Shown here: positions 12,286 to 29,026 of the stretch, piece after piece
Numbering within the stretch: position 1 is the first letter of the stretch
Layout: the number at the start of each line of letters is the position of its first letter
Assembly: GCA_963716205.1 (NCBI GenBank)
Contig: OY970290.1
Coordinates: forward strand, 30,411-94,410
DNA length: 64,000 nucleotides
Source: an uncultured bacterium
Lineage (GTDB): Bacteria > Patescibacteriota > Minisyncoccia > Phycocordibacterales > GWA1-40-21
Direction: 5' to 3'
Made by a program: the position numbers and the translations under genes
The notes under the pieces: model-generated
Database searches by the model: none
Seen by the model: the letters and a program-made list of their open reading frames with translations, nothing else
Told to the model about the DNA's origin: nothing

Positions 12286-13524
12286 ATGAAATATATGAAA
12301 AACACAAATATTATAAATAAATATACATTGCTCTTCGCAACACTTTTGCTTGCCGTTGTTTTTTCTATTGCAATGCCATTTGCAGCGAAGGCACAAGATG
12401 ATACTGACTACACTGGAACAGGATACACTGACTATTCTGGAACGGGCTATACTGATGGCACTGATTACACCGGAACAGGTTATACCGATTACACCGGAAC
12501 AGGTTATACCGATTACACGGGAACCGGCTATACTGATTATACTGGAACGGGTTACACAGAGCCAACTTCAAATGATACTCAAACAATCGTTCCTTACGAT
12601 AATTCATCTGTTGGTATTATTGGAGGCATATATTCCGGAGGATACTATGGCGGCTATTATTATCCTGGTTCAACAGTTTCTTCAGGAAGTTTTACTGGCG
12701 GTACTCTTTATGAACCGGTTCCAACGGCTGGACAATATCCGGGTTCAACAGTTACCACTTCAAGTTTTGGCGGCGGTACCGCGTATAACGGATATTATGG
12801 ATATAATAATTACAACTACGGACAGCTTACCGGTTCATGTTCAGGTCAAGTTTCAACCAATCCGTCAGGAACTTCAATTGTCTGGACCGCTCTTGCTTCA
12901 GGCGGAAACGGAGTCTATTACTACACATGGACTGGTGACAGCGGACTTTCAGGAACGGGGCAATATATTTCTCAGATCTATCCGTCCTCAACTGGCGTAG
13001 AAAATGCGTATTTGAGAATTAATTCAGGTGATGGACAAACAACCACCGAAGCGTGCTCTGTTACTCTCGGAAATCCAAACGAGGTTTTGGCTTACAGTGC
13101 TACCAATCCAAACTTGCAATCAGTCTACTTGAGTAATGTTCCATATACTGGCGCGGGAGATTTTGCAAAAGTTGTCGGATTCCTTTCAATGCTTTTGCTC
13201 TGGAGCGCGGGACTTTCCTACATCTTCTTGAAGAGAAAAGAAAAAATGGAAAATCCAATCACTGTTACACCTGAAGCATCGAATTCGTCTGAAAGTTCTG
13301 ATTATCTTCAAAATTTCAGAATGGAAACTAATTCCGATATTCAAGCGATAGAAAGTATTGAAACGTACGCTCGGATGAATCAAGTATTGCTTTCAAGCGA
13401 TGCTGTAAAAGAACTTGCCAAACTTTCTCGATTGAACAAAATTAATCCGAAAGAAGCTATCAAGAAAATGTCAAAAGGAGAATGGATCACGATAGGTGAG
13501 AACGATTTATCAAAATTTATCTAA
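12286..13524 (+). CDS. Secreted/membrane-anchored hypothetical protein with tandem Y/G/T-rich octapeptide repeats
   Basis: Signal peptide, then about six copies of (TGTGYTDY) encoded by a 24-nt tandem repeat at 12400-12570. A G/Y-rich low-complexity region follows, then a TM segment plus KRKEK. A TTGACT-17-TATAAT promoter lies at about 12235-12262. Confidence 0.6.
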   Translation: MKYMKNTNIINKYTLLFATLLLAVVFSIAMPFAAKAQDDTDYTGTGYTDYSGTGYTDGTDYTGTGYTDYTGTGYTDYTGTGYTDYTGTGYTEPTSNDTQTIVPYDNSSVGIIGGIYSGGYYGGYYYPGSTVSSGSFTGGTLYEPVPTAGQYPGSTVTTSSFGGGTAYNGYYGYNNYNYGQLTGSCSGQVSTNPSGTSIVWTALASGGNGVYYYTWTGDSGLSGTGQYISQIYPSSTGVENAYLRINSGDGQTTTEACSVTLGNPNEVLAYSATNPNLQSVYLSNVPYTGAGDFAKVVGFLSMLLLWSAGLSYIFLKRKEKMENPITVTPEASNSSESSDYLQNFRMETNSDIQAIESIETYARMNQVLLSSDAVKELAKLSRLNKINPKEAIKKMSKGEWITIGENDLSKFI

Positions 13525-14411: not shown

Positions 14412-14846
14412 ATGAAAATAATCAGCAAGAGTTTAAATGACACGGAAAAAATTGCGGAGGATTTTGTAAAAAAATTATCTTTTTATACGCCCGAAGGCGC
14501 GCTTATTATCGGCTTATATGGAGATCTCGGTTCCGGCAAAACGACGTTTGCACAGGACGTTGCGGAGATTTTTGGCATCGATGAAACCGTGACGAGTCCG
14601 ACGTATGTCATTGAAAAAATTTATCCCATCCTTCACGCAAAATTTAAAAATCTGATTCATATTGATGCCTATCGCTTGAACTCCGCAAAAGAGCTTATCG
14701 TTCTCGGCTGGCAGAACATATCATCCGATCCGCAAAACATTATTCTGATAGAATGGCCCGAAAAAGTCTCAGAAATTTTGCCGGAAAATCACGTAAAAAT
14801 TAATTTCAGATTCATCTCGGATACCGAGCGGGAAATTGAGATATAA
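14412..14846 (+). CDS. tsaE: tRNA threonylcarbamoyladenosine biosynthesis protein TsaE
   Basis: P-loop GDLGSGKTTF and the conserved ...IHIDAYRL motif. About 144 aa. Confidence 0.85.
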   Translation: MKIISKSLNDTEKIAEDFVKKLSFYTPEGALIIGLYGDLGSGKTTFAQDVAEIFGIDETVTSPTYVIEKIYPILHAKFKNLIHIDAYRLNSAKELIVLGWQNISSDPQNIILIEWPEKVSEILPENHVKINFRFISDTEREIEI

Positions 14847-14853
14847 TAGAAAC

Positions 14854-17325
14854 ATGGCAAAAAAATCTGGTGATAAAAAAATACTTGTCCTCCTCGATGT
14901 TCATGCAATTATTCATCGCGCATATCATGCGCTGCCGGAATTTGCCACAAGCTCCGGCGTGCCGACGGGCGCTCTCTACGGGCTTTCAACCATGCTTCTC
15001 AAAATCATTTCCGATTTGAAGCCAGATTATATCGCCGCTTGCTACGACTTGCCGAAGCCGACATATCGTCATATTGCCTACAAGGATTACAAAGCGGGCA
15101 GAGCAAAAGCAGACGAAGAGCTCATCGAACAGATCAAAAAATCCTACGACATCTTCCGCGCGTTCAATATCCCCATTTATTCAAAGGAAGGGTTTGAGGC
15201 GGATGATATGATTGGCACGATTGTCGAGAAAGAGAAGAAAGAAAAAAATCTTGATATCGTTATTGCGTCCGGTGATATGGATACGCTTCAGCTCGTTGAT
15301 GACGATCGCGTGCGGGTTTATACTTTGAAAAAAGGAATCAAGGATACGATTATTTATAATGAAAAAGGAGTTTTAGAACGATACGGATTCGGACCGAAGC
15401 TGTTGCCCGATTTCAAAGGTCTTCGAGGAGATCCGTCTGACAATATCATCGGCATCAACGGCATCGGCGAGAAAACGGCGACGGATTTAATAAAAAATTT
15501 CGGTTCGATCGAGGAAATGTACAAGAAATTAAAAAAAGCCGGCGGAAAAGAACAATTTGAAACAGCCGGCATCAAGGAAAGAATCGTCGGGCTGCTTGAG
15601 AATGGCGAAGAGGAAGCGAAGTTTTCCAAAATGCTCGGCACTATAAACAGAGCCGCACCGATTAATTTTTCGCTTCCGGAAAAAAGCTGGAAAGAAAGTG
15701 TTGATCTCGAAAAAGTGAATGCAGTGTGGAGCGAGCTTGAATTCAGGACTTTGGGTCAAAGATTAAAAGATGTTTTGTACGGCAACAATAGAAAAACTGA
15801 GGAAAAAAAATCAAAAGAAAATACCGAAACAAAAAAAGAGAAAAAAGAACGTGAGGAAAAAATAGAATATCAATACGAAAATATCAAAGAACTTTCGGTC
15901 ATACTTTGGCTTGTCAATTCGAGCATCACGAGTCCGAAAGGGGAAGACATTTTTAATTTTACGAAGACGAAAGATTCAAAAGAAGCAAAAAGAATTTTGC
16001 TTGCTGAACTTGAGAAAAGGGAATTGACGCGAGTCTGGGAAACGATAGAAAAGCCGCTTATTTCGGTTATCGAAGCTATGGAAAAAACTGGAGTGAAGAT
16101 CGACAAGAAAGAATTAGCGCGGTTGTCAAAGGATTATCATGCGAAACTTGCTACGCTTGAAAAGAAAATTTGGGATCATGCTGGTGATGAATTCAATATC
16201 AATTCGCCGAAGCAGCTGGGAGAAATACTTTTTATGAAGCTCGGACTGAAACCGAAAAATCAAAAGAAGACTGGTAGCGGCGCGCTTTCCACCAAAGAAA
16301 GTGAGCTTGAAAAAATGCGCGAAATGCACCCGATTATTGATCTGATCATTGAATACCGCGAATTCCAGAAACTTCTTTCCACCTATATCGATGTCATACC
16401 GGAACTTTTGGATGTAGATGGACGGCTTCATGCAAAATTCTTGCAGGCGGGAACGACGACAGGCAGAATGGCATCATCAAATCCGAATCTGCAGAATATT
16501 CCAAATGAAAGCGAGCTTGGCAGGAATATCCGCGCAGCATTTGTTGCCGACAATGGAACGAAACTTTTGTCATTTGATTATTCGCAGGCGGAGCTCCGCA
16601 TTGCGGCATTTCTCTCGGATGATAAAAAGCTGATCGAGATTTTCAAAAACAACGAAGACGTGCACACTGCGGTCGCCTCGGAAGTGTTCAATGTTCCACT
16701 AGATCAAGTGGACAAGGAAATGCGCCGACGGGCAAAGGTCATCAACTTTGGAATTATGTACGGTATGGGGGTGAACGCCCTGCGGGTAAATTTGAGCGGA
16801 GGTCAGACGATCATCACGGAGGCTCGCCCGGCATATTCCGGCGCCGTCAGCAGAGAAGAAGCGCAGAAATATCTGAACGCATATTTTGAGAAATTTTCCG
16901 GCCTTGCAAAATATTTGGAATGGATCAAAAATGACGCAAAAGAAAAAGGCTACACCCAGACGCTTTTCGGCAGACGAAGATATTTTGAAGGATTGCGATC
17001 CAAAGTGCCGTTTATCAAAGCGATGTCTGAGCGCATGGCGATCAACGCACCGATCCAAGGCACAGAAGCCGACATGATCAAACTTGCGATGATCCATATT
17101 GATAAATATTTAAAGGAAGAAAAACTGTCCGACAAAGTAAAATTGATCTTGCAGATTCATGATGAACTAGTCTATGAAGCGGATGAGACAATCGCAGAAA
17201 AAATTGCTCCGAAAATTGAAAAAATTATGGAAAATGTCATTCCTCTGAAAGATTCAAAAGGGATTGTCATGAAAGCATCGAGTATGGAAGGGGAGAATTG
17301 GAAGGAGATGGAAAAAATAAAATAA
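14854..17325 (+). CDS. polA: DNA polymerase I (5'-3' nuclease plus polymerase; the 3'-5' exonuclease domain appears vestigial, Taq-like)
   Basis: N-terminal FEN-like domain (LLDVHAIIHRAYHA). Polymerase motif A (DYSQAELR), motif B (RRRAKVINFGIMYGMG) and motif C (LQIHDELVYE). There is a K/E-rich low-complexity linker after the nuclease domain. Confidence 0.92.
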   Translation: MAKKSGDKKILVLLDVHAIIHRAYHALPEFATSSGVPTGALYGLSTMLLKIISDLKPDYIAACYDLPKPTYRHIAYKDYKAGRAKADEELIEQIKKSYDIFRAFNIPIYSKEGFEADDMIGTIVEKEKKEKNLDIVIASGDMDTLQLVDDDRVRVYTLKKGIKDTIIYNEKGVLERYGFGPKLLPDFKGLRGDPSDNIIGINGIGEKTATDLIKNFGSIEEMYKKLKKAGGKEQFETAGIKERIVGLLENGEEEAKFSKMLGTINRAAPINFSLPEKSWKESVDLEKVNAVWSELEFRTLGQRLKDVLYGNNRKTEEKKSKENTETKKEKKEREEKIEYQYENIKELSVILWLVNSSITSPKGEDIFNFTKTKDSKEAKRILLAELEKRELTRVWETIEKPLISVIEAMEKTGVKIDKKELARLSKDYHAKLATLEKKIWDHAGDEFNINSPKQLGEILFMKLGLKPKNQKKTGSGALSTKESELEKMREMHPIIDLIIEYREFQKLLSTYIDVIPELLDVDGRLHAKFLQAGTTTGRMASSNPNLQNIPNESELGRNIRAAFVADNGTKLLSFDYSQAELRIAAFLSDDKKLIEIFKNNEDVHTAVASEVFNVPLDQVDKEMRRRAKVINFGIMYGMGVNALRVNLSGGQTIITEARPAYSGAVSREEAQKYLNAYFEKFSGLAKYLEWIKNDAKEKGYTQTLFGRRRYFEGLRSKVPFIKAMSERMAINAPIQGTEADMIKLAMIHIDKYLKEEKLSDKVKLILQIHDELVYEADETIAEKIAPKIEKIMENVIPLKDSKGIVMKASSMEGENWKEMEKIK

Positions 17326-17332
17326 AACAGAG

Positions 17333-17366
17333 CGGCACCGAAGGCACCGCTCTGTTTTATTTTATT
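17333..17366. terminator. Bidirectional terminator hairpin between polA and tig (acagagcggcaccgaaggcaccgctctgt, A-run before, T-run after)
   Basis: Seen in the sequence. A closely related hairpin sequence recurs at 47199-47228. Confidence 0.65.
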
Positions 17367-18417
17367 TTTGATTTTCTAAAAATTGAATCACTACTTCATT
17401 AACCAAAATCATTTCCACATAGGCGCGAACGCGTTCCGGGTCGGCTTCTTTGTAATGTTCCATCAAATGTTTGATTTCTTTTTCTACATCTTCTTTTTTC
17501 GGTTCAATCTTTTCCTCAAGTGAAATCTTTTGCAAGACGAGCTGGGTTTTGGCGCGCTTTTCCGCATCGGGCTGCCATTCTTTGCGCAAATCTTCCCAGG
17601 ATTTCCTGATGTGTTTCAAATATTCTTCCGGCTGAAGTCCCATCTGAGCAATGTCGGCTTTGAACTGACCCTCCATTTTGTCGAGCTCGCTTTCGATAAG
17701 AATTTTCGGCATTTCTATCTTTGAATCTGCGGTGATTTTTTCCAAAATCTCAATTCTTTTTTTATCTTTTGCTTTTTGTTCTTTTTCTTTTGCGATATTG
17801 TCTTTGAGCTTTGCTTTGAAATCCGCGATGTCTTTGAATTCGCCGAGCTTTTTGACGAATTCATCCGTGATTTCCGGTAGTTCTAGTTTTTCATCATCAG
17901 TATGCTTTTCTCCTTCTTTATGAACATGATTTTGTTGCGCATACATTTTTCTGATCTGCTCGATCGTCTCCTCGATTTGTTTTTCAGATACTTCCTCGAC
18001 TTTCACTTCTTTTTTATTTTCATTTTTAGAGATTTTTTTGTAATCACCAAGCTTGATCTCCGGCATGACGGTGACGGTAATCTTGAATTCAATCGGTGAA
18101 TCAAGAGCGATTTTTATTATGGAAATATTAGGTCTACCGAGAAAATTCACTTTTGATTCAAGAAGAATTTCCGCAGCGCAATCGTTGATCGCCGCTTCCG
18201 CCGCTTCTTCCAGAATTCCAAGATCGCCGATCTTTTCTCGTAATGTTGCATCTGGAACATGTCCTTTGCGGAAGCCGGGCAGCTCCGTCATATCCTTGAT
18301 TTTCTTGAAAGCTTTGTCTTTGTAGGTCTCAAGCGCTTCCTTCGTGATTTCAGAAGTGATTTCCACGACTGAGTCGGGAAGTTTTTTTGTTCCTTTGATG
18401 GTGTATATTTTTATCAT
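17362..18417 (-). CDS. tig: Trigger factor
   Basis: Ribosome-binding signature GFRKGHVP in the N-terminal domain, and a helical C-terminal arm. At 351 aa it is a short form. Confidence 0.82.
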   Translation of the reverse strand: MIKIYTIKGTKKLPDSVVEITSEITKEALETYKDKAFKKIKDMTELPGFRKGHVPDATLREKIGDLGILEEAAEAAINDCAAEILLESKVNFLGRPNISIIKIALDSPIEFKITVTVMPEIKLGDYKKISKNENKKEVKVEEVSEKQIEETIEQIRKMYAQQNHVHKEGEKHTDDEKLELPEITDEFVKKLGEFKDIADFKAKLKDNIAKEKEQKAKDKKRIEILEKITADSKIEMPKILIESELDKMEGQFKADIAQMGLQPEEYLKHIRKSWEDLRKEWQPDAEKRAKTQLVLQKISLEEKIEPKKEDVEKEIKHLMEHYKEADPERVRAYVEMILVNEVVIQFLENQK

Positions 18418-18542
18418 TTTGAGAGTCTAGCTGAAAATGGAGAAAAATGCAAAACAACTGGCGGCATACAAAAATTTTCTTCTCAGAAAACTCGCTGCGC
18501 TCAAACAGTTCCTCGCAGAAAATTTTTGTATGCCGCTAGTTG

Positions 18543-18800
18543 TTATTTCAAATTATCGACGCCGTTTCCGAGATTTTGGAAATCAAGCGATGCGGCATCG
18601 TTTTGAATACTGTTCAAGTCCTCTTGTGATGAAGAAGCAATCTGCTGCCTTAATGCTTCAATTTGTTTTTGTTTCTGGACGCTTTGCTCGAAGAAATAAA
18701 ATGCACCGACAATGAGCATGACGATAATGATCAATATCCCCGAAGTCGTTCCTATTTCATTTGTTTCTTCGTTTTTTTGCATAATATTTTTTTCCATCAC
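18543..18800 (-). CDS. Small single-TM hypothetical protein
   Basis: 85 aa, one TM, then a Q-rich coiled-coil-like tail. Confidence 0.4.
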   Translation of the reverse strand: MMEKNIMQKNEETNEIGTTSGILIIIVMLIVGAFYFFEQSVQKQKQIEALRQQIASSSQEDLNSIQNDAASLDFQNLGNGVDNLK

Positions 18801-18802
18801 AC

Positions 18803-19321
18803 TTATTCTTGAGAAGAAGTCGTTGCTTGTTGCATTTCATCCGAACTTGTCGCAGATGACGATTCCTGTTTGAGCATATCTATCAAATTCAATATTGATT
18901 TGTGGGAAGTTTCAATAGATATTTTTGCCGCGATACTCTCCGTTTTAATACGAGAGATGATGACGTTTCGGGTGCTTGTCGAAGTCGGAACTGCCAATGC
19001 ATTTTCCAAATCGAGCACATTATTTGCGGAATTCGCAATCTCGGATTTTGTTTCATCAAAAAGCGCGCTTGAAGAGGCTACATCGTCTCCCGCTGCCTGC
19101 ATTTTTGAAATGCATGAACCGATCCTTTCAATGAGGTTGTTCAAGCTTGCAATTGCATTTTCAAAACCTTGCGCCACTTCAAGCCGCTCTCCATCAAGGG
19201 AATGTTTGACCACATCAGTTTTTGTCTTTGTCGAGGCGAGAAAATCTTGGGCATACGAAATACTGGACGCGCCAAGCGCGAAAACAGTGATGATTGCCGA
19301 TAAGTAAAATATCTTTTTCAT
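18803..19321 (-). CDS. Secreted hypothetical protein
   Basis: Signal peptide (MKKIFYLSAIITVFALGASSISYAQD). Helical low-complexity S/A-rich protein of 172 aa. Confidence 0.5.
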   Translation of the reverse strand: MKKIFYLSAIITVFALGASSISYAQDFLASTKTKTDVVKHSLDGERLEVAQGFENAIASLNNLIERIGSCISKMQAAGDDVASSSALFDETKSEIANSANNVLDLENALAVPTSTSTRNVIISRIKTESIAAKISIETSHKSILNLIDMLKQESSSATSSDEMQQATTSSQE

Positions 19322-19348
19322 AATGCGATTCTACAATACTTTTATCTT

Positions 19349-20554
19349 TTATTCAATTCCTTTGTCATTTTCCGCATATTCCGTCTCGACATATTCTCCA
19401 TCGACGGAAACAATGTCTATTTTCCAGCCGGTAAGCTTTGCCGCAAGGCGCACATTTTGTCCGCCTTTGCCGATGGCAAGCGATTGCTGATCCCGGGCGA
19501 CTTCCACCGTCGCTTTCTTTTCCGTTTCATCGATATTGATGGACAAAATTCTGGCAGGAGAAAGAGCTTCCTCGATGAATTTTTTCGGATCGGCTGACCA
19601 TTCAATAATGTCGATTTTTTCTCCGCCCAACTCCGACATGACCGTCGTCACGCGAACACCTCTTTGTCCGACAAGCGAGCCGACCGGATCAATATGATTA
19701 TCTTTTGACGCAACGGCGATTTTGGATCTCGAACCCGCTTCTCGCGCGATGGATTTCACTTCAACTGTTCCCGCACCGAGTTCCGGAGACTCCGTTTTAA
19801 AAAGTTCTTCCAAGAATTTCGGATGGGATCGAGAAAGTCTAAGAAAAATTCCTTTTGGTGTTTCTTCCACACGATACAAATATCCGCGGATTCTTTCTCC
19901 CGGCTTATATTTTTCTCCCGGAATCTGTTCTTCATAGGGAAGGATGGCGGTCGCTCTGCCCATATCGACAAAAAGATTTCCCCGTTCAAGTCTTTGCACA
20001 GTGCCGGTGACAATTGTTCCTTCCTTTTCGCCGTATTCATTGAATACCGAAACCTTTTCCGCCTCGCGGATTTTTTGGACAATGACCTGCTTTGCCGTCT
20101 GCGCGGCGATTCTGCCGTAGTCACTTTTTTCTTCAAGCGGAAAGACGAGCTCGTCGCCGATTTTCACGTCTTTTTTTATTTTTTTCGCGTCTTCAAGGAA
20201 AATATGATGCTCCGGATTGTAATAGACGACTTTTTCGCCTTTTTCATTTAATTCTTCTTTTTCTTCTTCAATCCTGCGGGATTTTTTGAACCGCTCGTCT
20301 GCTTCCTTATCCTCATTTTTCTCTTCGCGCATGACGACGCTGTTTTTATCCACAACGGTTTTAACTTGGATGAATTCCATTTTGCCGCTGGTAAGGTCGA
20401 CTTTTGCCTTTATAATCTGTCCTCTTTTTCCATATTCTTTTTTGTAGGCGGTGGCAAGCGCCATTTCAATAGCCTCGATCATTTTCGCTTTCGGTATACC
20501 TTTTTCCTGCTCCATTTGTTCGATGACTGAGTTGATGACTTTGAGATCTATCAT
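19349..20554 (-). CDS. nusA: Transcription termination/antitermination factor NusA
   Basis: N-terminal domain, S1 domain and two KH domains. A K/E-rich insertion is present. Start set at MIDLKVINS; the upstream extension in the track is read-through. Confidence 0.85.
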   Translation of the reverse strand: MIDLKVINSVIEQMEQEKGIPKAKMIEAIEMALATAYKKEYGKRGQIIKAKVDLTSGKMEFIQVKTVVDKNSVVMREEKNEDKEADERFKKSRRIEEEKEELNEKGEKVVYYNPEHHIFLEDAKKIKKDVKIGDELVFPLEEKSDYGRIAAQTAKQVIVQKIREAEKVSVFNEYGEKEGTIVTGTVQRLERGNLFVDMGRATAILPYEEQIPGEKYKPGERIRGYLYRVEETPKGIFLRLSRSHPKFLEELFKTESPELGAGTVEVKSIAREAGSRSKIAVASKDNHIDPVGSLVGQRGVRVTTVMSELGGEKIDIIEWSADPKKFIEEALSPARILSINIDETEKKATVEVARDQQSLAIGKGGQNVRLAAKLTGWKIDIVSVDGEYVETEYAENDKGIE

Positions 20555-20712
20555 ATATTTATTGATTATTTTGTTATTATTTAAAAAAATGAGCTCGCCT
20601 CGCGGCGAACTGCACACCCTCATCATACACGGTTGTTATTTATTGTCAATCTTTGCTATAATTATGCCTGCTTATCAATTATTTATTTTAATTTAACAAA
20701 TTTAAAAACTCC

Positions 20713-23700
20713 ATGAAAAAAACATTATTCATTGCGGCAACATGCATCGCATGCCTTCTCCCGTTCAATTCCGTTTTTGCTCAAACTGCTTCTTCATCCG
20801 CAGGTTTTATTGTCGCAACGGTTGATATCAATAATACAAAAATTGTTTCAGAAAACGGCAGAAACTTTGTTTTATCCTTCACTTTGGCGAATGAAAGCGG
20901 AGCACAGCCGCAGATACAATATGCCGTTAAATTGACCAATGCATCGGGCAACAGCCCAATCATCTACGATGAGCATGTGTATAATGAAATGCTTTCAATC
21001 GGACAGAACGAACATGTCAATGAGACGATCAATTATTCGATCCCAGATGCATTACCTGCCGGAACGTATCAATTATGGATTGAAGTGAAAAATGAAAGCG
21101 GTCTTCCGCTCGGCTCGGCATACGCTGGCAAAGCGATAATTACGGACAATGTTTCGAACACCGTTGAAATCATTCCGAATTCTTGCAGTTTCAATAACCA
21201 AACATTTATTGCAACATGCTCGATCAACAGTTCTTTCCAGACAACCGTAACTTTTGTTCCGACGTTTGTCACAAAACAATATTCAATTTTTGGCACAGTT
21301 ATTCCACAAACAGGAGGTGGAAATTCAAATATCACCATTCAAACAGGTTCGAGCACCATATCTGTCAGCGTGCCGAAAGCAGAGAATTCCGGAAATGACA
21401 ATGTAACTTTTTCACTTGTTTCAGCAGATGGAAGCACAACCTCAAATGAAGTGAATTTTATGTATACGCTCGGCACAGAGCTTGGTATTATACGAAATGT
21501 CATTTTTGATAAGACGTTTTATAAAGCGGGCGATACAGCCAATGTGCAAATCTTTTCAAATCAGAATGTGGCGAGCACGCTTACTCTCTCTGTCGTCGAT
21601 AGTTTTGGAAATTCCTGCGCAAGCCCAGTCAATGTTACTGCCACAAATGCCGCCGTTACAAAATTGCAAGTCCCAATAATAAAAGACTGCGTCAATCCGA
21701 CAGCAAATGTTACTTTGTTCACAGTAAGTGCAACAGGCGCAAAGACAATTCTGGATTCGAATAATTTCAAGATAAACAGCCCGCAAAATATCGTAGCGCA
21801 GGAAGCGGCGCAAGCATCAAGCGCGACGAATACGATTATTATCATTGTTATTGTCATTATCATTTTGATTATCCTTTTAAGCGTCGCGTTCCGCAAAAAG
21901 AAAAATCAGACAATCGTTGTTATCATTGCCGGATTGTTTATTTTTGGACTTGCACATTCTGCAAAAGCATTGACGATAGATTATCCGATCAACGACAGTA
22001 GTGGCTGGCAGGGATCGATTGATTTTACTTTGTCTGGAGTACCGACAACAGTTTCTCCCGAATCAGGAATTGCAGTGGGGGTAGATGCTTACATAAACCA
22101 AGGTCCATTTTCTCTCGATCAACTTAATTTTTCTGTGAACGGTAATGTATTGCACATGATCGCCGGTGCGGGAAGTTGTCAGTTTCCAAGTGTCGGTCAG
22201 AGCGGTCAGAGCGTATCTTTTTTTGCACCTTCAACTGTTGGTGCTGCTACCCTTAACCTTTCTTACTACATATCTGATATTTATGATTGCGGCAAAGGCG
22301 GAGAGAAAATTTCTGTTTCACAAACGTTCAATAACCCGGTTACTTACGATGTTGTAACTCCGCCGACATTTACCTCGCCAGCTCCAGGATTTACAATTTC
22401 ACAAGGCGCCTCAACAACTTTGTCGTGGACTTCAGGCGGTTACAATTATTGTTCGATAGCACAAGAGCCGCAAGATGGAAGTGCTTCTTCCACAATTGTC
22501 GTCGGATCCCCGATTGTTCCCCCCATTTATCAATTTACCGGATTCAATAATCCGAGCGGAGTGGCGTATGATTCACTCGGTAATATTTTTGTTGTCGACA
22601 CGGGAAATAATGTTGTCTATAAATTTGATGCTTCAGGAAATAAAACTACGATCGGCAACGGCCAGCTGAATAGTCCGACGGGAATAGCTGTGGATTCCTC
22701 AAATGATCTTTATGTGTCGGATTCCGGGAACAATCGCATTGAAAAATTTACCCTTTCAGGCGACACATATACTTCAAGTGTGTTTGGAAATGCGAATGGT
22801 GAATTTGTTTCAGTCGATTCAAACTCCGATGTTGCCACTTCACCGAATGGAACCACATGGACAGTAAAATCAAAAGCGTTAGGTTCGAGCAATACTTGGA
22901 ACTCGGTAACTTACGGAAATGGAACATTCGTTGCTGTCGATTCAAACTCCGATGTTGCCACTTCACCGAATGGAACCACATGGACAGTAAAATCAAAAGC
23001 GTTAGGTTCGAGCAATACTTGGAACTCGGTAACTTACGGAAATGGAACATTCGTTGCTGTCGATTCAAACTCCGATGTTGCCACTTCACCGAATGGAACC
23101 ACATGGACAGTAAAATCAAAAGCGTTAGGTTCGAGCAATACTTGGAACTCGGTAACTTACGGAAATGGAACATTCGTTGCTGTCGATTCAAACTCCGATG
23201 TTGCCACTTCACCGAATGGAACCACATGGACAGTAAAATCAAAAGCGTTAGGTTCGAGCAATACTTGGAACTCGGTAACTTACGGAAATGGAACATTCGT
23301 TGCTGTCGATTCAAACTCCGATGTTGCCACTTCACCGAATGGAACCACATGGACCGTAGGTACCGGTGCTATTAGCGGGGGCAGTAACAATGTGTGGAAT
23401 TCCGTAACCTACGGAAATGGAACATTCGTTGCGGTTAATTCAGGATCAAGTGTTGCAACTTCAAGCAATGGTAGCAATTGGGCAAAAGAAATCGGCACTC
23501 TCTTGGTCAGCGGAAATAGCAGAGTTTGGAACTCGGTAACTTACGGAAATGGAACATTCGTTGCTGTCGATTCAAACTCCGATGTTGCCACTTCACCGAA
23601 TGGAACCACATGGACAGTAGAATCCACCGCTTTTGGAACTAGTGAAAGTTGGAATTCCGTAACCTACGGAAACGGAATAATACCTTTTCCGTTCAATAAT

Positions 23701-25335
23701 CCGACAGGTATATCCATTGATTCTTCCGGCAATGTATATATCGCCGATACAGGAAATAATGTTATTGAAAAATTTAATTCTTCCGGAAATTATATTTCCA
23801 GTATTTCTGGATATTCAATAACAACGACAAGTCATGGCCACCAAACAACAACCGGTTATACATTCAATAATCCTACAGGTGTAGCAGTAAATTCTTCCGA
23901 TGCCGTTTATGTGGCTGATGCAGGCAATGATCTTATTGAAAAGCTTGATTCTTCCGGCAATTATATTTCTGAAACGAGTATTCCGGGAAATACAAAATAT
24001 GGCGCTACTGCTTCTTCAGAGATTGCCATCGATTCTTCCGGCAATGTTTATGTCGCCACCAATGTGAGCGGCGGTTTTGTCACGGAATTTAATTCCTCTC
24101 TTAGCGAACAGCTTGCCCAGCTTAGTGCCAGCGCTTATTATCCTGGTATTGCTGTCAATTCAAATGATGCCGTATCGGGTGGTGAAGCTGTATATATTGA
24201 AAAACAGGGCACAGGTCTTGTAAAATACAATTCTTCACTCAATACTGCTTTGAATCTCGTACCGCAAACAGGCAATCCAGAATTCTCTGGTGCCACATCA
24301 ACGCTTCCGATAAATGCCAATACCAATTTTGTGCTTTCATGCACGGATATGTTTGGAAATATTGCGACAAGCAGTTTGCTGATAAATTTGAGTGGCGCCC
24401 CGACTGCAGATATAGAAGTTTCTTCGAGCACAATCACTTCCCAAAATCCCGGCGGCACGACAACGGCAGTGAATGCCGGAGATCCAGTATATCTCTCATA
24501 TAGCGGATCTGGTTTGAGTTCATATACTGTTTCTTCAAATCCTGATATTGTCGCAGTGTCATCAAAAGGATCAAATAATGTTGCTACGGTGTTGGATAGT
24601 GAAACTGGAATTGCTCCATTTGGTAATACGAAAGTCGTTAATATTACTCAAAAAACAACATTCACTATTCAAGGTACAGGAACAAATGGATCTCCGGTGA
24701 TAAAAACTGCAACTGCTTACATAAAGCCGATAGCTCCAAGTGGTCTTTCTGCAACATCTTCTTGTGGTGGAGTAAGTCTATCTTGGACACCTGTTTCAGG
24801 AGAGGGAATAACATACAATATATACAGAACTGATACAGCGGGATCAATTGCTTCAACTGTGAATACTTATTATACTGATACCACTGCGGCAAACGCTTCC
24901 GAAAAATATACCTATTATGTTACTGCAGTAGAGGATAGTGTAGCTGAATCAAATCCATCGGGAACTGTCTCGGCAACTATTCCGGCTTATTGTAACCAGC
25001 CGCCAGCAACATCAGGAGCCACTTCTTGTTCGGCAAGCCAGGTGAATTCAACTAATCCGACGGGGACTCCTGGAGGAATCATTTACGTAAACCAACAGAT
25101 GACATGGACTATGAATAATATTGACCCATCAACGGTGATAGGTACTATCTGGAGCGGCACAGGCTTGCCATTGTCCGGCATAAATACAAGTGGAATATCA
25201 TTAAGTAATATTTACACTACAGTCGGTCCAAAAACAATAAATGCTACAACAACCTACGGAACAAACGGGAGTATTTATACGGCGACGTGTTCGACAACAG
25301 TGAGATTGGCACCGGGAACGAATCAGGAAATATAA
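20713..25335 (+). CDS. Giant (1540 aa) cell-surface protein: signal peptide, Ig-like N-region, internal two-helix TM hairpin, NHL repeats, about 8 copies of a ~41-aa WNSVTYGNGTFVAV repeat, C-terminal FN3-like domain
   Basis: Signal peptide cleavage around AQT. Hydrophobic hairpin at aa ~375-420, with RKKKNQ between the two helices. NHL-type motifs (NNPSGVAYDSLGNIFVVDTGNNVVYKF). FN3-like segment (PSGLSATSSCGGVSLSWTPVSGEGITYNIYRT). Confidence 0.8.
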   Translation: MKKTLFIAATCIACLLPFNSVFAQTASSSAGFIVATVDINNTKIVSENGRNFVLSFTLANESGAQPQIQYAVKLTNASGNSPIIYDEHVYNEMLSIGQNEHVNETINYSIPDALPAGTYQLWIEVKNESGLPLGSAYAGKAIITDNVSNTVEIIPNSCSFNNQTFIATCSINSSFQTTVTFVPTFVTKQYSIFGTVIPQTGGGNSNITIQTGSSTISVSVPKAENSGNDNVTFSLVSADGSTTSNEVNFMYTLGTELGIIRNVIFDKTFYKAGDTANVQIFSNQNVASTLTLSVVDSFGNSCASPVNVTATNAAVTKLQVPIIKDCVNPTANVTLFTVSATGAKTILDSNNFKINSPQNIVAQEAAQASSATNTIIIIVIVIIILIILLSVAFRKKKNQTIVVIIAGLFIFGLAHSAKALTIDYPINDSSGWQGSIDFTLSGVPTTVSPESGIAVGVDAYINQGPFSLDQLNFSVNGNVLHMIAGAGSCQFPSVGQSGQSVSFFAPSTVGAATLNLSYYISDIYDCGKGGEKISVSQTFNNPVTYDVVTPPTFTSPAPGFTISQGASTTLSWTSGGYNYCSIAQEPQDGSASSTIVVGSPIVPPIYQFTGFNNPSGVAYDSLGNIFVVDTGNNVVYKFDASGNKTTIGNGQLNSPTGIAVDSSNDLYVSDSGNNRIEKFTLSGDTYTSSVFGNANGEFVSVDSNSDVATSPNGTTWTVKSKALGSSNTWNSVTYGNGTFVAVDSNSDVATSPNGTTWTVKSKALGSSNTWNSVTYGNGTFVAVDSNSDVATSPNGTTWTVKSKALGSSNTWNSVTYGNGTFVAVDSNSDVATSPNGTTWTVKSKALGSSNTWNSVTYGNGTFVAVDSNSDVATSPNGTTWTVGTGAISGGSNNVWNSVTYGNGTFVAVNSGSSVATSSNGSNWAKEIGTLLVSGNSRVWNSVTYGNGTFVAVDSNSDVATSPNGTTWTVESTAFGTSESWNSVTYGNGIIPFPFNNPTGISIDSSGNVYIADTGNNVIEKFNSSGNYISSISGYSITTTSHGHQTTTGYTFNNPTGVAVNSSDAVYVADAGNDLIEKLDSSGNYISETSIPGNTKYGATASSEIAIDSSGNVYVATNVSGGFVTEFNSSLSEQLAQLSASAYYPGIAVNSNDAVSGGEAVYIEKQGTGLVKYNSSLNTALNLVPQTGNPEFSGATSTLPINANTNFVLSCTDMFGNIATSSLLINLSGAPTADIEVSSSTITSQNPGGTTTAVNAGDPVYLSYSGSGLSSYTVSSNPDIVAVSSKGSNNVATVLDSETGIAPFGNTKVVNITQKTTFTIQGTGTNGSPVIKTATAYIKPIAPSGLSATSSCGGVSLSWTPVSGEGITYNIYRTDTAGSIASTVNTYYTDTTAANASEKYTYYVTAVEDSVAESNPSGTVSATIPAYCNQPPATSGATSCSASQVNSTNPTGTPGGIIYVNQQMTWTMNNIDPSTVIGTIWSGTGLPLSGINTSGISLSNIYTTVGPKTINATTTYGTNGSIYTATCSTTVRLAPGTNQEI
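22810..23350 (+). repeat. About 4.4 perfect tandem copies of a 123-bp coding repeat, then degenerate copies to about 23690
   Basis: Identical nucleotide units (gctgtcgattcaaactccgatgttgccacttcaccgaatggaaccacatggacagtaaaatcaaaagcgttaggttcgagcaatacttggaactcggtaacttacggaaatggaacattcgtt). The tandem repeats also generate the mirror antisense ORFs in the track. Confidence 0.9.
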
Positions 25336-25340
25336 AAAAT

Positions 25341-25372
25341 AAGGGCTTCGCTAAAAATAGCGAAGCCCTTTT
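25341..25372. terminator. Bidirectional terminator hairpin (aagggcttcgc-taaaaata-gcgaagccctt)
   Basis: Perfect 10-bp stem with flanking A and T runs, between convergent genes. Confidence 0.65.
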
Positions 25373-25390
25373 CGAAACAAAACCTATTTT

Positions 25391-25843
25391 TTAAGGAATT
25401 GTGTATGGCCCAGTTGTGTGCGTATCTCCCCCACAACATCCAACATGATGATCTATGTTTGATCCGGAGACATAAACATCTTCCTCGTCCGTAGTCGATC
25501 CATTTCCATTAAAGTTGACTATCATATGGACCACACTACCCGAGTGCCCGATGCAAGTCACAGCCCAAGAAATTCCACCGATGGGTATTGTGACATTTTG
25601 TTCCACCCCATTGCCATCCCAGTAATTTATTAATCCTGTTGGGGCAATGTTGTTGGCAACGGTAACAGCGTAAGAAAAGGTTACTGTTGGTATTGCTGTC
25701 GGTGATGGTGTTACCACTGGCGTGACGATCGGTGTTGGCGATGAGCCCCCACCCAATGACGGATCCGTCGGAGACTTGCTGCATGACTGAAGCAACAAAG
25801 TTCCAATGAAAGCAAACATCACGACAAAAAATAAATTTCTCAT
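25391..25843 (-). CDS. Putative lipoprotein / secreted hypothetical protein
   Basis: Signal peptide ending LLLQSC (lipobox-like), a P/T-rich linker, and a beta-rich domain of 150 aa. Confidence 0.5.
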   Translation of the reverse strand: MRNLFFVVMFAFIGTLLLQSCSKSPTDPSLGGGSSPTPIVTPVVTPSPTAIPTVTFSYAVTVANNIAPTGLINYWDGNGVEQNVTIPIGGISWAVTCIGHSGSVVHMIVNFNGNGSTTDEEDVYVSGSNIDHHVGCCGGDTHTTGPYTIP

Positions 25844-26042
25844 GACACACCTCCCGATGTGATTAAGTTTTGGTTTCTAACTATTTGATTTGAAGGGTAT
25901 CAGGTCTCTTGCGAGAACCCTTTACTAACGTTCCTTTTCATGTTACACTATTTACGATATTTTGTCAAGTGGTGGAATATTCAACTGAAATTGAGGCTTT
26001 TTGTTCACACATCATCATTTTTTCTGATATAATAATCAGCAA

Positions 26043-27797
26043 ATGCAGCTTGAACCGAAACAACTGAAAGATTTTTTGATCGATACCGGACTTATCACAC
26101 GGAGTGAATATGACGATATCGAAAATCAAATAAAAGCCGGCGAATTCAAAGATACTATCGACAAAGTGCTGGTCTCTTTGGGGAAAATTTCAGAGGATGA
26201 TTTGCGGCGGGCGCAGGCGCACACCTTCGGCATACCGTTTGTGGATTTGAGAGATCAGAAAATAGAGCCGGAAGTTCTTTCTCTCATTCCGGAGCCGGTG
26301 GCGCGAAAGAATAACATCATTGCGTTCAAGAAAAATGCCGATTCGCTCGAAGTGGCAATGCTTGATACCAACGATCTCGCCTCGATCGAATTTATCAAAA
26401 AGAAAACCGGAATGAAAATCCTGACGCGACTGACCGATACCGAATCCATCAAGAATGGAATCTTGCAATATCAGAAAAGTTTGAAAGCGGAATTCGGCGA
26501 CCTGATACAAAAAGATCTTCTTGCCATCAAAAATGTCGGCGCAGCGGGCGAGGAGCTTGAAGAGGAAACGCTGAAAAAAATCGCGGAAGATTTGCCGGTC
26601 GTCCGCATTGTCGAAACGCTTTTGAAGCACGCGATTCTGCAGAATGCATCCGATATTCACATTGAGTGCATGGAAAACAATGTACTCATACGCTACCGCA
26701 TTGATGGCATTTTGCACGATGCGATGGTTTTGCCGAAAATCGCGGCGACATCCATCACGGCGAGGATCAAAGTCCTTTCAAATCTGAAGCTCGATGAAAA
26801 ACGGCTTCCGCAAGACGGGCGATTCAATATCGATCTAAACGGAGAAAAAGTTTCTTTCAGAGTTTCAATCATTCCGACGTATTTCGGAGAAAAAACAGTC
26901 ATGCGGCTTTTGCGGGAGAGCGTCGGCAATTATTCCTTGGAGTCGACCGGTTTTCACGGCATCAATCTCGAAAGAATTCATGAAGCGATGCGCCGGGCAA
27001 ACGGCATGATATTGACCACCGGTCCGACCGGAAGCGGAAAGACCACGACACTCTATACGATACTTGAAATTTTAAACACGCCGAACGTGAACATAGCGAC
27101 GATAGAAGATCCTATCGAATACCAAATGATGAGAGTCAATCAGACTCAGGTCAAGCCGGACATCGGATTTACGTTTTCAAACGGTTTGCGGTCTCTCGTC
27201 AGGCAGGATCCGGATATCATCATGGTTGGAGAAATCCGTGACAACGAAACTGCATCGCTTGCCGTCAACGCGGCTTTGACCGGACATTTGGTCCTCTCGA
27301 CGCTTCATACGAATTCCGCTTCAGGCGCGATACCGAGATTAATCGATATGAAAATAGAGCCGTTTCTTTTAGTTTCCACGATCAATATTGTCATGGGACA
27401 AAGGCTGGTGAGAAAACTTTCAAAAGAAAAACAAAAATACATGCTTTCAAAAACGGAGCTTGCGTCGCTTGCGAAGATTGTCGATCTGGACCGCGTCCTT
27501 TCTATTCTCAAATCCGAAAATATTATCGGCAAAGACGATGAATGGGCAAAAATTCCTTTTTACAAGGCGGTGGAATCTGCGGATGCCAAAGACGGCTATT
27601 CTGGCAGAATCGGAATCCATGAAGTGATGAAAATTTCTCCAGCAATACGTGATCTCATCATGAAAGGCGGCACGTCGCAGGATATTGAAAATCAATCGCG
27701 CAAAGAGGGGATGATTACCATGGTTGAAGACGGAATTTTCAAATGCGTTCAGGGTCTGACAACGATTGAAGAAGTGCTCCGTGTTGTGACAGAATAA
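26043..27797 (+). CDS. pilB: Type IV pilus assembly ATPase PilB (GspE family, with N-terminal T2SSE_N domain; copy 2)
   Basis: Walker A LTTGPTGSGKTTTLY and an N-terminal GspII_E_N-like domain. Immediately upstream of pilC. Confidence 0.9.
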   Translation: MQLEPKQLKDFLIDTGLITRSEYDDIENQIKAGEFKDTIDKVLVSLGKISEDDLRRAQAHTFGIPFVDLRDQKIEPEVLSLIPEPVARKNNIIAFKKNADSLEVAMLDTNDLASIEFIKKKTGMKILTRLTDTESIKNGILQYQKSLKAEFGDLIQKDLLAIKNVGAAGEELEEETLKKIAEDLPVVRIVETLLKHAILQNASDIHIECMENNVLIRYRIDGILHDAMVLPKIAATSITARIKVLSNLKLDEKRLPQDGRFNIDLNGEKVSFRVSIIPTYFGEKTVMRLLRESVGNYSLESTGFHGINLERIHEAMRRANGMILTTGPTGSGKTTTLYTILEILNTPNVNIATIEDPIEYQMMRVNQTQVKPDIGFTFSNGLRSLVRQDPDIIMVGEIRDNETASLAVNAALTGHLVLSTLHTNSASGAIPRLIDMKIEPFLLVSTINIVMGQRLVRKLSKEKQKYMLSKTELASLAKIVDLDRVLSILKSENIIGKDDEWAKIPFYKAVESADAKDGYSGRIGIHEVMKISPAIRDLIMKGGTSQDIENQSRKEGMITMVEDGIFKCVQGLTTIEEVLRVVTE

Positions 27798-27808
27798 ATT
27801 TTAATACC

Positions 27809-29026
27809 ATGGACAAATTCAAATTCAAAGCGATCGGAAAAGACGATAAAGTTTATGAAGGAATTCGCGAATCCCAAAATAAATTTTCTTTATACAACGA
27901 ACTCAAGGCGGAGGGCAGCACGCTTGTTTCTGCGGTGGAAATAAATCGCAAATCTCACTGGTTTGATTCTTTGACTGCGCTTTTTGGAGGAGTTCCGGAA
28001 GATCAGAAAATAATGTTCACCAAAAATCTCGGCTATATGATCGCCGCTGGGTTGCCGATCGCAAAGAGTCTTTCCGTTTTGGAAAGGCAGATCAGTAATG
28101 CCAAATTCAAGAGCATCATCGTTTCTCTCGAATCGGAAATCAGGAAAGGCCAGACGCTTTCCGATGCGGCATCGGCGTATCCGAGCATTTTTTCAAACCT
28201 GTTCGTATCAATGGTCAAGGCGGGAGAGGAAAGCGGCAAACTTTCCGAATCGCTTGAAATCGTCGGCGATCAGATGGACGGAATGCACAAACTGAAACAG
28301 AAAATTACCGGCGCGATGATTTATCCGGGCATTATTGTTTCCCTGATGATTATTATCGGAGTGCTGATGCTTATCTACGTCGTGCCATCGATCACCGCGA
28401 CATTTACCAGTTTGAACGAAACCTTGCCCATCTACACGCAGATATTGATAGGAACGAGTAATTTTTTGAAAAACAACATATTGCTTTCTCTTGTTATCGT
28501 AGTCGCGGCCGTCCTTTTCTATTATCTTTTCTCAATCTCGAAAATCGGAAAGCGATCAATCGATTTTATTTCGCTGAAATTGCCGGTTGTCGGCGAGCTT
28601 GTCCGTGAGACAAATTCTGCACGTATTGCGCGGACACTTTCGTCACTTCTTTCTTCCGGAGTGGCTTTTGACAAGGCGATTTTGATCACAGGTGATGTCA
28701 TCGGCAACAGTTATTTCAAAAAGATTTTGAGTGATGCCTCCATGCGCGTGCAGAAAGGCGAGACAATCTCGAGCGTTTTTTTGGCGAATACGAAAATTAT
28801 GCCGGATTTTGTCGGAGAAATGATGAATGTCGGCGAAGAAACCGGCCAGCTGCCGCAAATGCTCATGGAAGTTGCCACGTATTATGAAAATTCCGTTGAT
28901 CAAAAAACAAAAGACATGTCCACTATCATTGAGCCCGTGCTGATGATTATCATTGGCGTCGTGGTTGGATTTTTTGCCCTTGCTATCATCAAGCCGATTT
29001 ATTCCGTCATGGACAACATCAGCTAA
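27809..29026 (+). CDS. pilC: Type IV pilus platform protein PilC (GspF family)
   Basis: Two T2SS_F repeats and three TM helices. 405 aa, downstream of pilB. Confidence 0.85.
   Translation: MDKFKFKAIGKDDKVYEGIRESQNKFSLYNELKAEGSTLVSAVEINRKSHWFDSLTALFGGVPEDQKIMFTKNLGYMIAAGLPIAKSLSVLERQISNAKFKSIIVSLESEIRKGQTLSDAASAYPSIFSNLFVSMVKAGEESGKLSESLEIVGDQMDGMHKLKQKITGAMIYPGIIVSLMIIIGVLMLIYVVPSITATFTSLNETLPIYTQILIGTSNFLKNNILLSLVIVVAAVLFYYLFSISKIGKRSIDFISLKLPVVGELVRETNSARIARTLSSLLSSGVAFDKAILITGDVIGNSYFKKILSDASMRVQKGETISSVFLANTKIMPDFVGEMMNVGEETGQLPQMLMEVATYYENSVDQKTKDMSTIIEPVLMIIIGVVVGFFALAIIKPIYSVMDNIS

Follow-up and report, generated by a model that had tools for sequence, protein, structure and literature searches.

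Beta-propellers with nearly identical blades are a described phenomenon. A 2022 survey by Pereira and Lupas collected 9,919 proteins with highly repetitive propellers, in which the blades are up to 100% identical in protein sequence and in DNA sequence alike, and it reads such identical blades as recent amplification (PMC9218822). "Locally repetitive" propellers, in which some near-identical blades lie within a degenerate propeller, account for 8% (PMC9218822). The text of the survey does not mention EPTP, NHL, or Patescibacteria. Here, we describe such a propeller in a 64,000-nt stretch of DNA from an uncultured member of the Patescibacteriota (contig OY970290.1 of assembly GCA_963716205.1), which we call the window. 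An open reading frame (ORF) on its plus strand encodes a 1540-aa predicted surface protein that carries an array of 123-bp repeats. We hold with moderate confidence that this array encodes a closed seven-bladed propeller nested in an NHL propeller, that recent intragenic recombination has acted within an older array, and that the blade number is held at 7.

Two other known systems invite comparison. Streptococcal surface proteins of the alpha C/Rib type contain identical tandem repeats that vary in number. Their repeats are independently folding domains that form an open-ended stalk, and any count is viable. The window gene resembles them in having in-frame, nucleotide-identical repeats in a (predicted) surface protein, which provide a substrate for recombination. 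However, the window repeats are predicted to be blades of a closed ring. In integrin alpha, the I-domain is a folded domain inserted between propeller blades 2 and 3, and the window protein likewise appears to hold a complete domain in the blade 2-3 linker of a host propeller. In contrast to integrin alpha, the guest would itself be a propeller and the host a six-bladed NHL propeller; the two are not homologous, and the likeness is drawn from sequence.

The repeat shows exact 123-bp periodicity over 542 bp, or 4.4 units, at 22813 to 23354, with 419 consecutive self-matches in a lag-123 comparison from 22813. Tandem Repeats Finder (TRF) extended the array into diverged copies (22813 to 23624, period 123, 6.5 copies, 84% matches), and a second repeat scan agreed. 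The array is in frame with the ORF, its chance origin is impossible, and the 64-kb window has no other large tandem array. The original prediction, made from the letters of the sequence, had described about 4.4 perfect 123-bp copies in a 1540-aa protein, followed by diverged copies, and had taken the DNA identity as a sign of very recent expansion or ongoing copy-number change. The repeat and its diverged continuation are confirmed, and the identity of the 4.4 units does point to very recent duplication or recombination. Its count of eight copies of the ~41-aa module was one too high, as both the motifs and a unit hidden Markov model (HMM) gave seven. Seven S-x-N-G-x-x-W motifs are present, at aa 710, 751, 792, 833, 874, 917, and 961, and six GNGTFVAV cores are complete. 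The unit HMM, built from homologues, produced seven substantial matches (aa 695 to 721, 729 to 762, 770 to 803, 811 to 844, 852 to 885, 895 to 925, and 939 to 973) and an extra 10-residue fragment at aa 980 to 989. The array is made up of six full units, one N-truncated unit (aa 688 to 728) that is fused to the NHL linker, and the terminal fragment WNSVTYGNG (aa 980 to 988). The gene and the parts of the array are as follows.

20713 to 25335, plus strand: ORF for the 1540-aa predicted surface protein, identical to P0001 (ORF scan, Pfam, alignments)
22813 to 23354, plus strand: block of exact 123-bp periodicity, 4.4 nucleotide-identical units (self-comparison, TRF)
22774 to 23676, plus strand: predicted nested seven-bladed propeller, aa 688 to 988 (HMM and motif counts, AlphaFold, Foldseek)
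22774 to 22896, plus strand: unit 1, chimeric with the NHL linker FGNANGEF
22897 to 23019, plus strand: unit 2
23020 to 23142, plus strand: unit 3
23143 to 23265, plus strand: unit 4
23266 to 23394, plus strand: unit 5
23395 to 23526, plus strand: unit 6
23527 to 23649, plus strand: unit 7
23650 to 23676, plus strand: terminal strand fragment
23526 to 23619, plus strand: 94-nt exact match to the main unit, in unit 7, followed by a loop that differs at 13/30 positions (unit alignment, Fisher test)

Two off-frame ORFs overlie the repeat, at 22748 to 23350 (minus strand, 200 aa) and 22857 to 23375 (plus strand, 172 aa). Both are periodic, and both are almost certainly artefacts of a stop-free unit propagated by the repeat.

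Unit 1 lacks its first strand and starts within an NHL-type linker (...SSVFGNANGEF followed by VSVDSNSD...). The array ends with the strand that is absent from unit 1, WNSVTYGNG, after which IIPFPFNNPTGISID... begins the next NHL blade. Because a truncated first unit together with a terminal strand is the usual signature of propeller closure, the two plausibly form a single "velcro" closure blade. At the insertion junction (22783 to 22812), G-N-A-N-G-E-F in the NHL linker is similar to Y-G-N-G-T-F, the motif of the blades. Therefore, the first blade is a chimera of host linker and guest blade, and this micro-similarity may be a trace of the route by which the propeller was inserted.

The original prediction viewed the module as a beta-propeller-type blade, and the Pfam score, the AlphaFold model, and the fold matches bear this out. 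AlphaFold2 folded aa 683 to 993, with 45 homologues in the alignment, into a closed propeller with a mean pLDDT of 86.1 and a pTM of 0.85. The model has six four-stranded blades with pLDDT values of about 85 to 98. In a Foldseek search of the PDB, seven-bladed propellers came out on top: Ycf48 first (TM 0.64 to 0.67 over about 285 columns), followed by G-beta, DAIP, and beta-TrCP. Against Pfam, the repeat region scored 56.1 to 56.4 bits for EPTP (PF03736), with a gathering cut-off of 21; this score is a sum of weak per-repeat matches, of which zero to one stretches are significant alone. Most close homologues carry precomputed PF03736 matches. DUF6242 scored under its cut-off, and a weak RibLong match (24 bits, cut-off 27) was also below threshold. 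The model and the sequence matches both point to the 41-aa units being blades of a closed seven-bladed beta-propeller.

The module is common. A word-indexed search found 2,496 homologues of the repeat region at an E value of ≤1e-3 among the scored candidates, the best of them 45 to 52% identical over more than 80% of the region. An exhaustive HMMER search of 1.84 billion representatives found 24,577 clusters, defined at 50% identity, at ≤1e-3, 15,900 at ≤1e-10, and 4,169 at ≤1e-30. Many of these clusters are giant proteins with several matched stretches; the 1397-aa P0005 has 17 blades, and the 3130-aa P0178 has 16 matched stretches. The sources searched gave no informative name and no characterised member for this family of more than 24,000 clusters. 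The blade consensus of the class is W-x-x-V-x-Y-G-x-G-x-F-V-A-V ... S-x-D/N-G-x-x-W. Among the 120 best homologues, 84 have 7 blades, 30 have 6, 5 have 5, and 1 has 8, where some of the six-blade counts will be fragments or miss divergent blades. The seven blades of the window protein thus equal the mode of the family. Viral proteins also match the insert. Those in BFVD align at TM 0.72 to 0.78 with up to 44% identity and include caudoviral proteins with intramolecular chaperone domains of the tail-fibre type, such as the phage protein M1PQ47 (44% identity, TM 0.74); a giant-virus collagen-repeat protein matches as well. A PHROGs scan gave weak matches only, to families without an assigned function. 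As judged from these sequences and models, the module class is a very widespread bacterial and phage propeller that is scored by EPTP and is structurally nearest to the Ycf48 type.

The two nearest named families differ from the window propeller in informative ways. The EPTP/EAR propeller of LGI1 and its relatives (PF03736), an extracellular protein-binding domain to which the window propeller can be likened, shares the over-threshold score and the seven repeats of about 41 to 45 aa. However, EPTP was defined on animal proteins with a leucine-rich repeat (LRR) partner domain, whereas the window context is prokaryotic. In addition, no single repeat of the window protein is significant alone, a PDB sequence search with the repeat region gave marginal matches only (E ≥ 0.01), and LGI1 is absent from the top 50 Foldseek matches of the insert. 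The seven-bladed propellers of Ycf48/HCF136 and the Asp-box type include the best structural matches (5ojr, 5oj5, and 2xbg), and Ycf48 belongs to a group that Pereira and Lupas assigned to Asp-box propellers (PMC9218822). Each window blade ends in an S-x-(D/N)-G-x-x-W motif that recalls the Asp-box, SxDxGxTW. On closer comparison, the window motif S-P-N-G-T-T-W (S-P-D-G-I-T-W in homologues) is one residue shorter than the Asp-box and has Asn for Asp. Sequence identity to Ycf48 is only 12 to 16%, and the window protein has no photosystem II link.

NHL repeats flank the array, as the original prediction had supposed. Pfam NHL (PF01436) scored 101.9 bits against a cut-off of 20, with four significant stretches. 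Read directly in the sequence, the domain has six blades, two before the array and four after it.

22531 to 22773, plus strand: NHL blades 1 and 2, aa ~607 to 687 (Pfam NHL, AlphaFold, BLAST with the insert removed)
23677 to 24240, plus strand: NHL blades 3 to 6, aa ~989 to 1176 (Pfam NHL, BLAST over the in silico junction, direct sequence reading)

When aa 693 to 988 were deleted in silico, the joined NHL segment aligned contiguously by BLAST across the junction to 49 uninterrupted NHL propellers; one example, P0003, aligned over its residues 832 to 1105 (35.6% identity over 284 aa). This places the seven-bladed propeller in the blade 2-3 linker of what reads as a six-bladed NHL propeller. 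The resulting propeller-in-propeller geometry is predicted from these alignments. We also modelled a 556-aa segment with AlphaFold, with propeller homologues only in the alignment, since local MAFFT placed NHL homologues on the insert, either whole or split in two. In this model the insert has pLDDT values of 88 to 98 and NHL blades 1 and 2 have values of 76 to 91. A Foldseek search with it returned only low-TM matches to double propellers, with 2ymu among the matches, and was uninformative on the nested geometry. Base composition offered a possible sign of horizontal origin, with a GC content of 45% in the insert, 40% in the NHL flanks, and 41.5% in the window. The gap is too small to be interpreted in this sense and is confounded by the repeat.

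The nucleotide sequence of the array is a mosaic. Units were compared in a W-first register, in which the core is 93 nt and the loop is 30 nt. Units 2 to 4 are nucleotide-identical, and unit 1 has no differences (0/84) from the main unit from nucleotide 40 on. Unit 5 has one synonymous difference in its core and a fully diverged loop (GTGAISGGSNNV versus KSKALGSSNT). On the far side of the diverged unit 6, unit 7 again has a core identical to that of the main unit (0/93 differences) and a loop that differs at 13/30 positions (core versus loop, Fisher p about 1e-9). From the main unit, units 5 and 7 differ by about 40% in their loops and by 0 to 1 nt in their cores. Between this downstream region and the main array, the longest exact match spans 94 nt (23526 to 23619, matching from 22896), and from its sequence it looks like a gene-conversion footprint. 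No further donor copy of the 41-aa module was found elsewhere in the window. Unit 6 differs from the main unit at 23/93 core nucleotides, 8 of them in synonymous codons; where both units encode the same peptide, WNSVTYGNGTFVAV, over 42 nt, there are 5 synonymous and 0 nonsynonymous differences. The terminal fragment carries the unit-6 synonymous variants, with 1 difference from unit 6 and 4 from the main unit. One core peptide is therefore encoded by two nucleotide "haplotypes," and blocks of perfect identity abut blocks that are about 40% diverged. This pattern is not that of gradual divergence after one amplification. We also considered loop diversification by a diversity-generating retroelement (DGR). 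This origin was rejected because the substitutions between the loops of unit 7 and the main unit are not adenine-specific; they include G>T, T>A, and C>T besides changes at A.

The blades are unusually alike for this family. Their pairwise identity averages 75%, which ranks at the top for the family, and three blade pairs are at least 90% identical, with a maximum of 100%. Among the top homologues, which are a biased sample of the module family, the median of the mean blade identity is 55%, five other proteins have a blade pair at ≥90%, and 100%-identical blades occur only in the window protein. The mean and the maximum place the protein among highly repetitive propellers, which are defined by pairwise identity above 60% between consecutive blades. 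It is also locally repetitive, since units 5 to 7 have diverged loops and unit 6 is diverged throughout. As in the surveyed proteins, whose prototype is the WRAP protein Npun_R6612 (PDB 2ymu), identical consecutive blades stand among more diverged ones (PMC9218822). The window case differs from them in its blade family, which is EPTP/Ycf48-like and not WD40/WRAP, in its lineage, Patescibacteria, and in its nesting in an NHL propeller. It also differs in its mosaic of identical cores and different loops in nonadjacent units, which points to gene conversion besides tandem duplication.

A simple explanation for such identity is the birth of a new propeller, in which all seven blades derive from one recent blade by the global amplification model of Lupas and co-workers and units 5 to 7 were the first to diverge. 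Such amplification from one blade has been documented for many lineages of propellers (PMC9218822), and the seven units here share a 31-aa core and a mean identity that is high for the family. However, the synonymous differences in the unit 6 core, and the sharp boundaries between near-identical cores and the diverged loops of units 5 and 7, are not what uniform divergence gives. In addition, a related family member, L002, already has an old, diverged seven-blade copy. We therefore regard de novo amplification as highly improbable.

The mosaic instead suggests that an older array underwent recent tandem duplication or unequal exchange in units 1 to 5, together with at least one nonadjacent conversion, in the core of unit 7. 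A history in which three units were simply added implies a four-blade ancestor, which is below all of the counts in the family census. Number-preserving processes, either conversion or duplication balanced by loss under selection, are therefore more likely. We suggest the following course of events. An older, already diverged seven-blade array would have been the starting point. Recent tandem duplication or unequal exchange, together with gene conversion, would have homogenised its blades by concerted evolution, a process distinct from open-ended repeat expansion. Ring closure would hold the blade number at 7, and most copy-number variants would probably be selected against. The outcome would be a quasi-symmetric propeller in which five of the seven blades have nearly the same surface, an arrangement that would suit multivalent ligand binding. 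A binding role is favoured by analogy with phage proteins of the tail-fibre type that have a similar propeller and by the type IV pilus genes nearby. The recombination mechanism, the selection on blade number, the extracellular topology, and the binding or adhesin role are all inferred.

The original prediction had proposed a different fate for the array, a length-variable contingency surface protein. In that case the repeat would be a variable-number tandem repeat (VNTR) locus, in which RecA-dependent or slipped-strand changes in unit number yield functional, selected surface variants that affect host range or evasion. The 542 bp of perfect in-frame direct repeats, the predicted surface exposure in a lineage of the episymbiont type, and the high variability of the middle region of the protein family are all consistent with this, as are the 36/120 module homologues with 5, 6, or 8 blades. 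However, the anatomy does not support it. Instead of independent modules in an open-ended row, the units form a closed ring, and this ring has the canonical seven blades. The copy number is therefore probably structurally constrained, and the gain or loss of one unit alters the closure of the ring. The collections searched contained no copy-number variant, which is weak evidence because only one assembly is at hand. No second copy of the gene was available for a comparison of copy number: P0001, which NCBI and ENA both record, forms a cluster by itself, the GTDB representatives lack the gene, and JGI metagenome contigs gave 0 matches to a degenerate DNA pattern for FVAVDSNSDVATSPNGTTW. Taken together, we consider a contingency locus unlikely.

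An artefact of assembly or polishing must also be weighed. The true unit number might differ, or units that differ by single-nucleotide polymorphisms (SNPs) might have been homogenised during polishing by multi-mapped reads. Nucleotide-identical repeats longer than a short read are not countable from short reads, the sequence comes from a single metagenome-derived contig of 681,747 bp, and Pereira and Lupas caution that the number of identical units in such propellers is hard to assemble (PMC9218822). The original prediction had flagged this as a classic place for assembly collapse, a caution that is reasonable. Even so, the assembled array keeps the reading frame, its blade number is exactly the canonical seven, and its in silico fold is the closed propeller described above. 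Random collapse or expansion would rarely give a canonical in-frame propeller. The identity block also has sharp, codon-consistent edges beside clearly diverged units, and the length of the contig, 682 kb in a genome of about 0.7 Mb, suggests long reads or a well-resolved assembly. An artefact is thus quite unlikely.

Several points nevertheless weigh against the reading that we prefer, a nested seven-bladed propeller homogenised by recombination at a constant blade number. NHL blades 3 to 6 are poorly modelled (pLDDT 31 to 71), because the alignment does not cover them, and the nested architecture rests on sequence. The closure blade, formed by chimeric unit 1 and the terminal strand, has low confidence (pLDDT 39 to 68). 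Gene conversion is deduced from one sequence, and the same mosaic could have arisen through a different succession of duplications and deletions. Both the copy number and its stability rest on one assembly of the gene. Finally, perfect direct repeats of 542 bp are an efficient recombination substrate, which means that variants must appear, and the protein might tolerate six or eight blades. At its extreme, this last point leads to a working blade-number switch, in which recombination among the 123-bp units continually yields six-, seven-, or eight-bladed or re-closed propellers and thereby changes or switches off the ligand specificity of an episymbiont adhesin whose gene neighbours those of the type IV pilus. 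We rate this as very unlikely. If it were true, contingency variation on a closed-ring fold would have been caught together with inter-blade gene conversion.

The nested propeller is one variable part of a modular protein. From its N terminus, the 1540-aa protein comprises a signal-peptide-like segment, a conserved N-terminal region, a membrane hairpin, the NHL domain with the nested propeller, immunoglobulin (Ig)/fibronectin type III (FN3)-like regions, and a conserved C-terminal domain. Its family relatives are four proteins (P0002, P0003, P0004, and P0017) and five loci in metagenome-assembled genomes (MAGs) of Patescibacteria; one MAG with a family member carries the label Candidatus Saccharibacteria. 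Across the family, the N-terminal ~420 aa are shared at 30 to 47% identity; for the five loci, tblastn gave 39 to 44%. Conservation also covers the C-terminal ~100 aa in P0002 to P0004, in the five locus-encoded proteins, and in two tandem paralogues that we inspected, with the pattern IYVN..MTW...IYTTVG.K...VKL..G...EI and an ending of EI or EF (QEI in the window protein). This domain has no Pfam match and could be a sorting or anchoring signal. In contrast to both ends, the middle regions vary. P0002 (881 aa) lacks both propellers, the NHL propellers of P0003 and L003 are uninterrupted, and L002, from another Patescibacteria MAG, has an ordinary diverged seven-blade copy of the 41-aa module and no NHL domain. 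The middle regions of the remaining members have no Pfam match. These sequences point to a small, Patescibacteria-specific family of modular surface proteins. The further features of the gene and its neighbours are listed here.

21805 to 21984, plus strand: two adjacent hydrophobic helices with RKKK between them (aa ~365 to 424), the second ending in A-K-A (Kyte-Doolittle scan, alignment)
25030 to 25335, plus strand: conserved C-terminal domain of ~100 aa (family alignments, no Pfam match), found elsewhere in the L001 to L005 family genes, at L003:14656-18954, and at L002:4701-7409
19349 to 20626, minus strand: nusA, upstream neighbour (Pfam)
26043 to 29026, plus strand: genes for a pilB-like (T2SSE) ATPase and a pilC-like (T2SSF) platform protein, downstream neighbours (Pfam)

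A signal-peptide-like N terminus and a hairpin of two hydrophobic helices, with basic residues between them and a small-x-small end, are present in all aligned family members. In the window protein, A-K-A resembles a signal-peptidase site, and the sequence of the hairpin suggests a C-terminal anchor with an internal signal peptide behind it. Such a hairpin may place both large parts of the protein outside the cell or may lead to cleavage into two polypeptides.

By Pfam, the gene order at 14836 to 29026 is polA, tig, a hypothetical gene, nusA (minus strand), the surface-protein gene (plus strand), a hypothetical gene, pilB, and pilC. The layout at L001, L003, and L005 is comparable in ORF size, order, and orientation, the neighbours there being unannotated, and it sometimes includes a tandem surface-protein paralogue. 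In cultivated Saccharibacteria, association with the host is reported to be driven by type IV pili (PMC9894109, PMC11623550), and a role of the family in host attachment is plausible. Elsewhere in the window, a 412-aa ORF at 12286 to 13524 (plus strand), which has no Pfam match, carries a small in-frame tandem repeat at 12403 to 12554 (periods of 24 and 57 nt, 77 to 88% matches, "DYTGTGYT"-like).

The locus is a fresh example of the known phenomenon of recently amplified propeller blades. Its own features are the EPTP/Ycf48-like blade family, the Patescibacteria host, the nesting in an NHL propeller, and the conversion-type mosaic. It is a clean prokaryotic case in which blades have been homogenised, and the text of the survey mentions neither its propeller class nor its phylum (PMC9218822). 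The mosaic lets old and new events be told apart within one gene, and the fixed blade number of the family can be used to check the copy number of a repeat that is otherwise unresolvable. The case also draws attention to a Patescibacteria-specific family of surface proteins encoded next to the pilus genes and to a module family of more than 24,000 clusters. Such findings do not overturn current understanding, and they could guide the study of how episymbionts bind their hosts.

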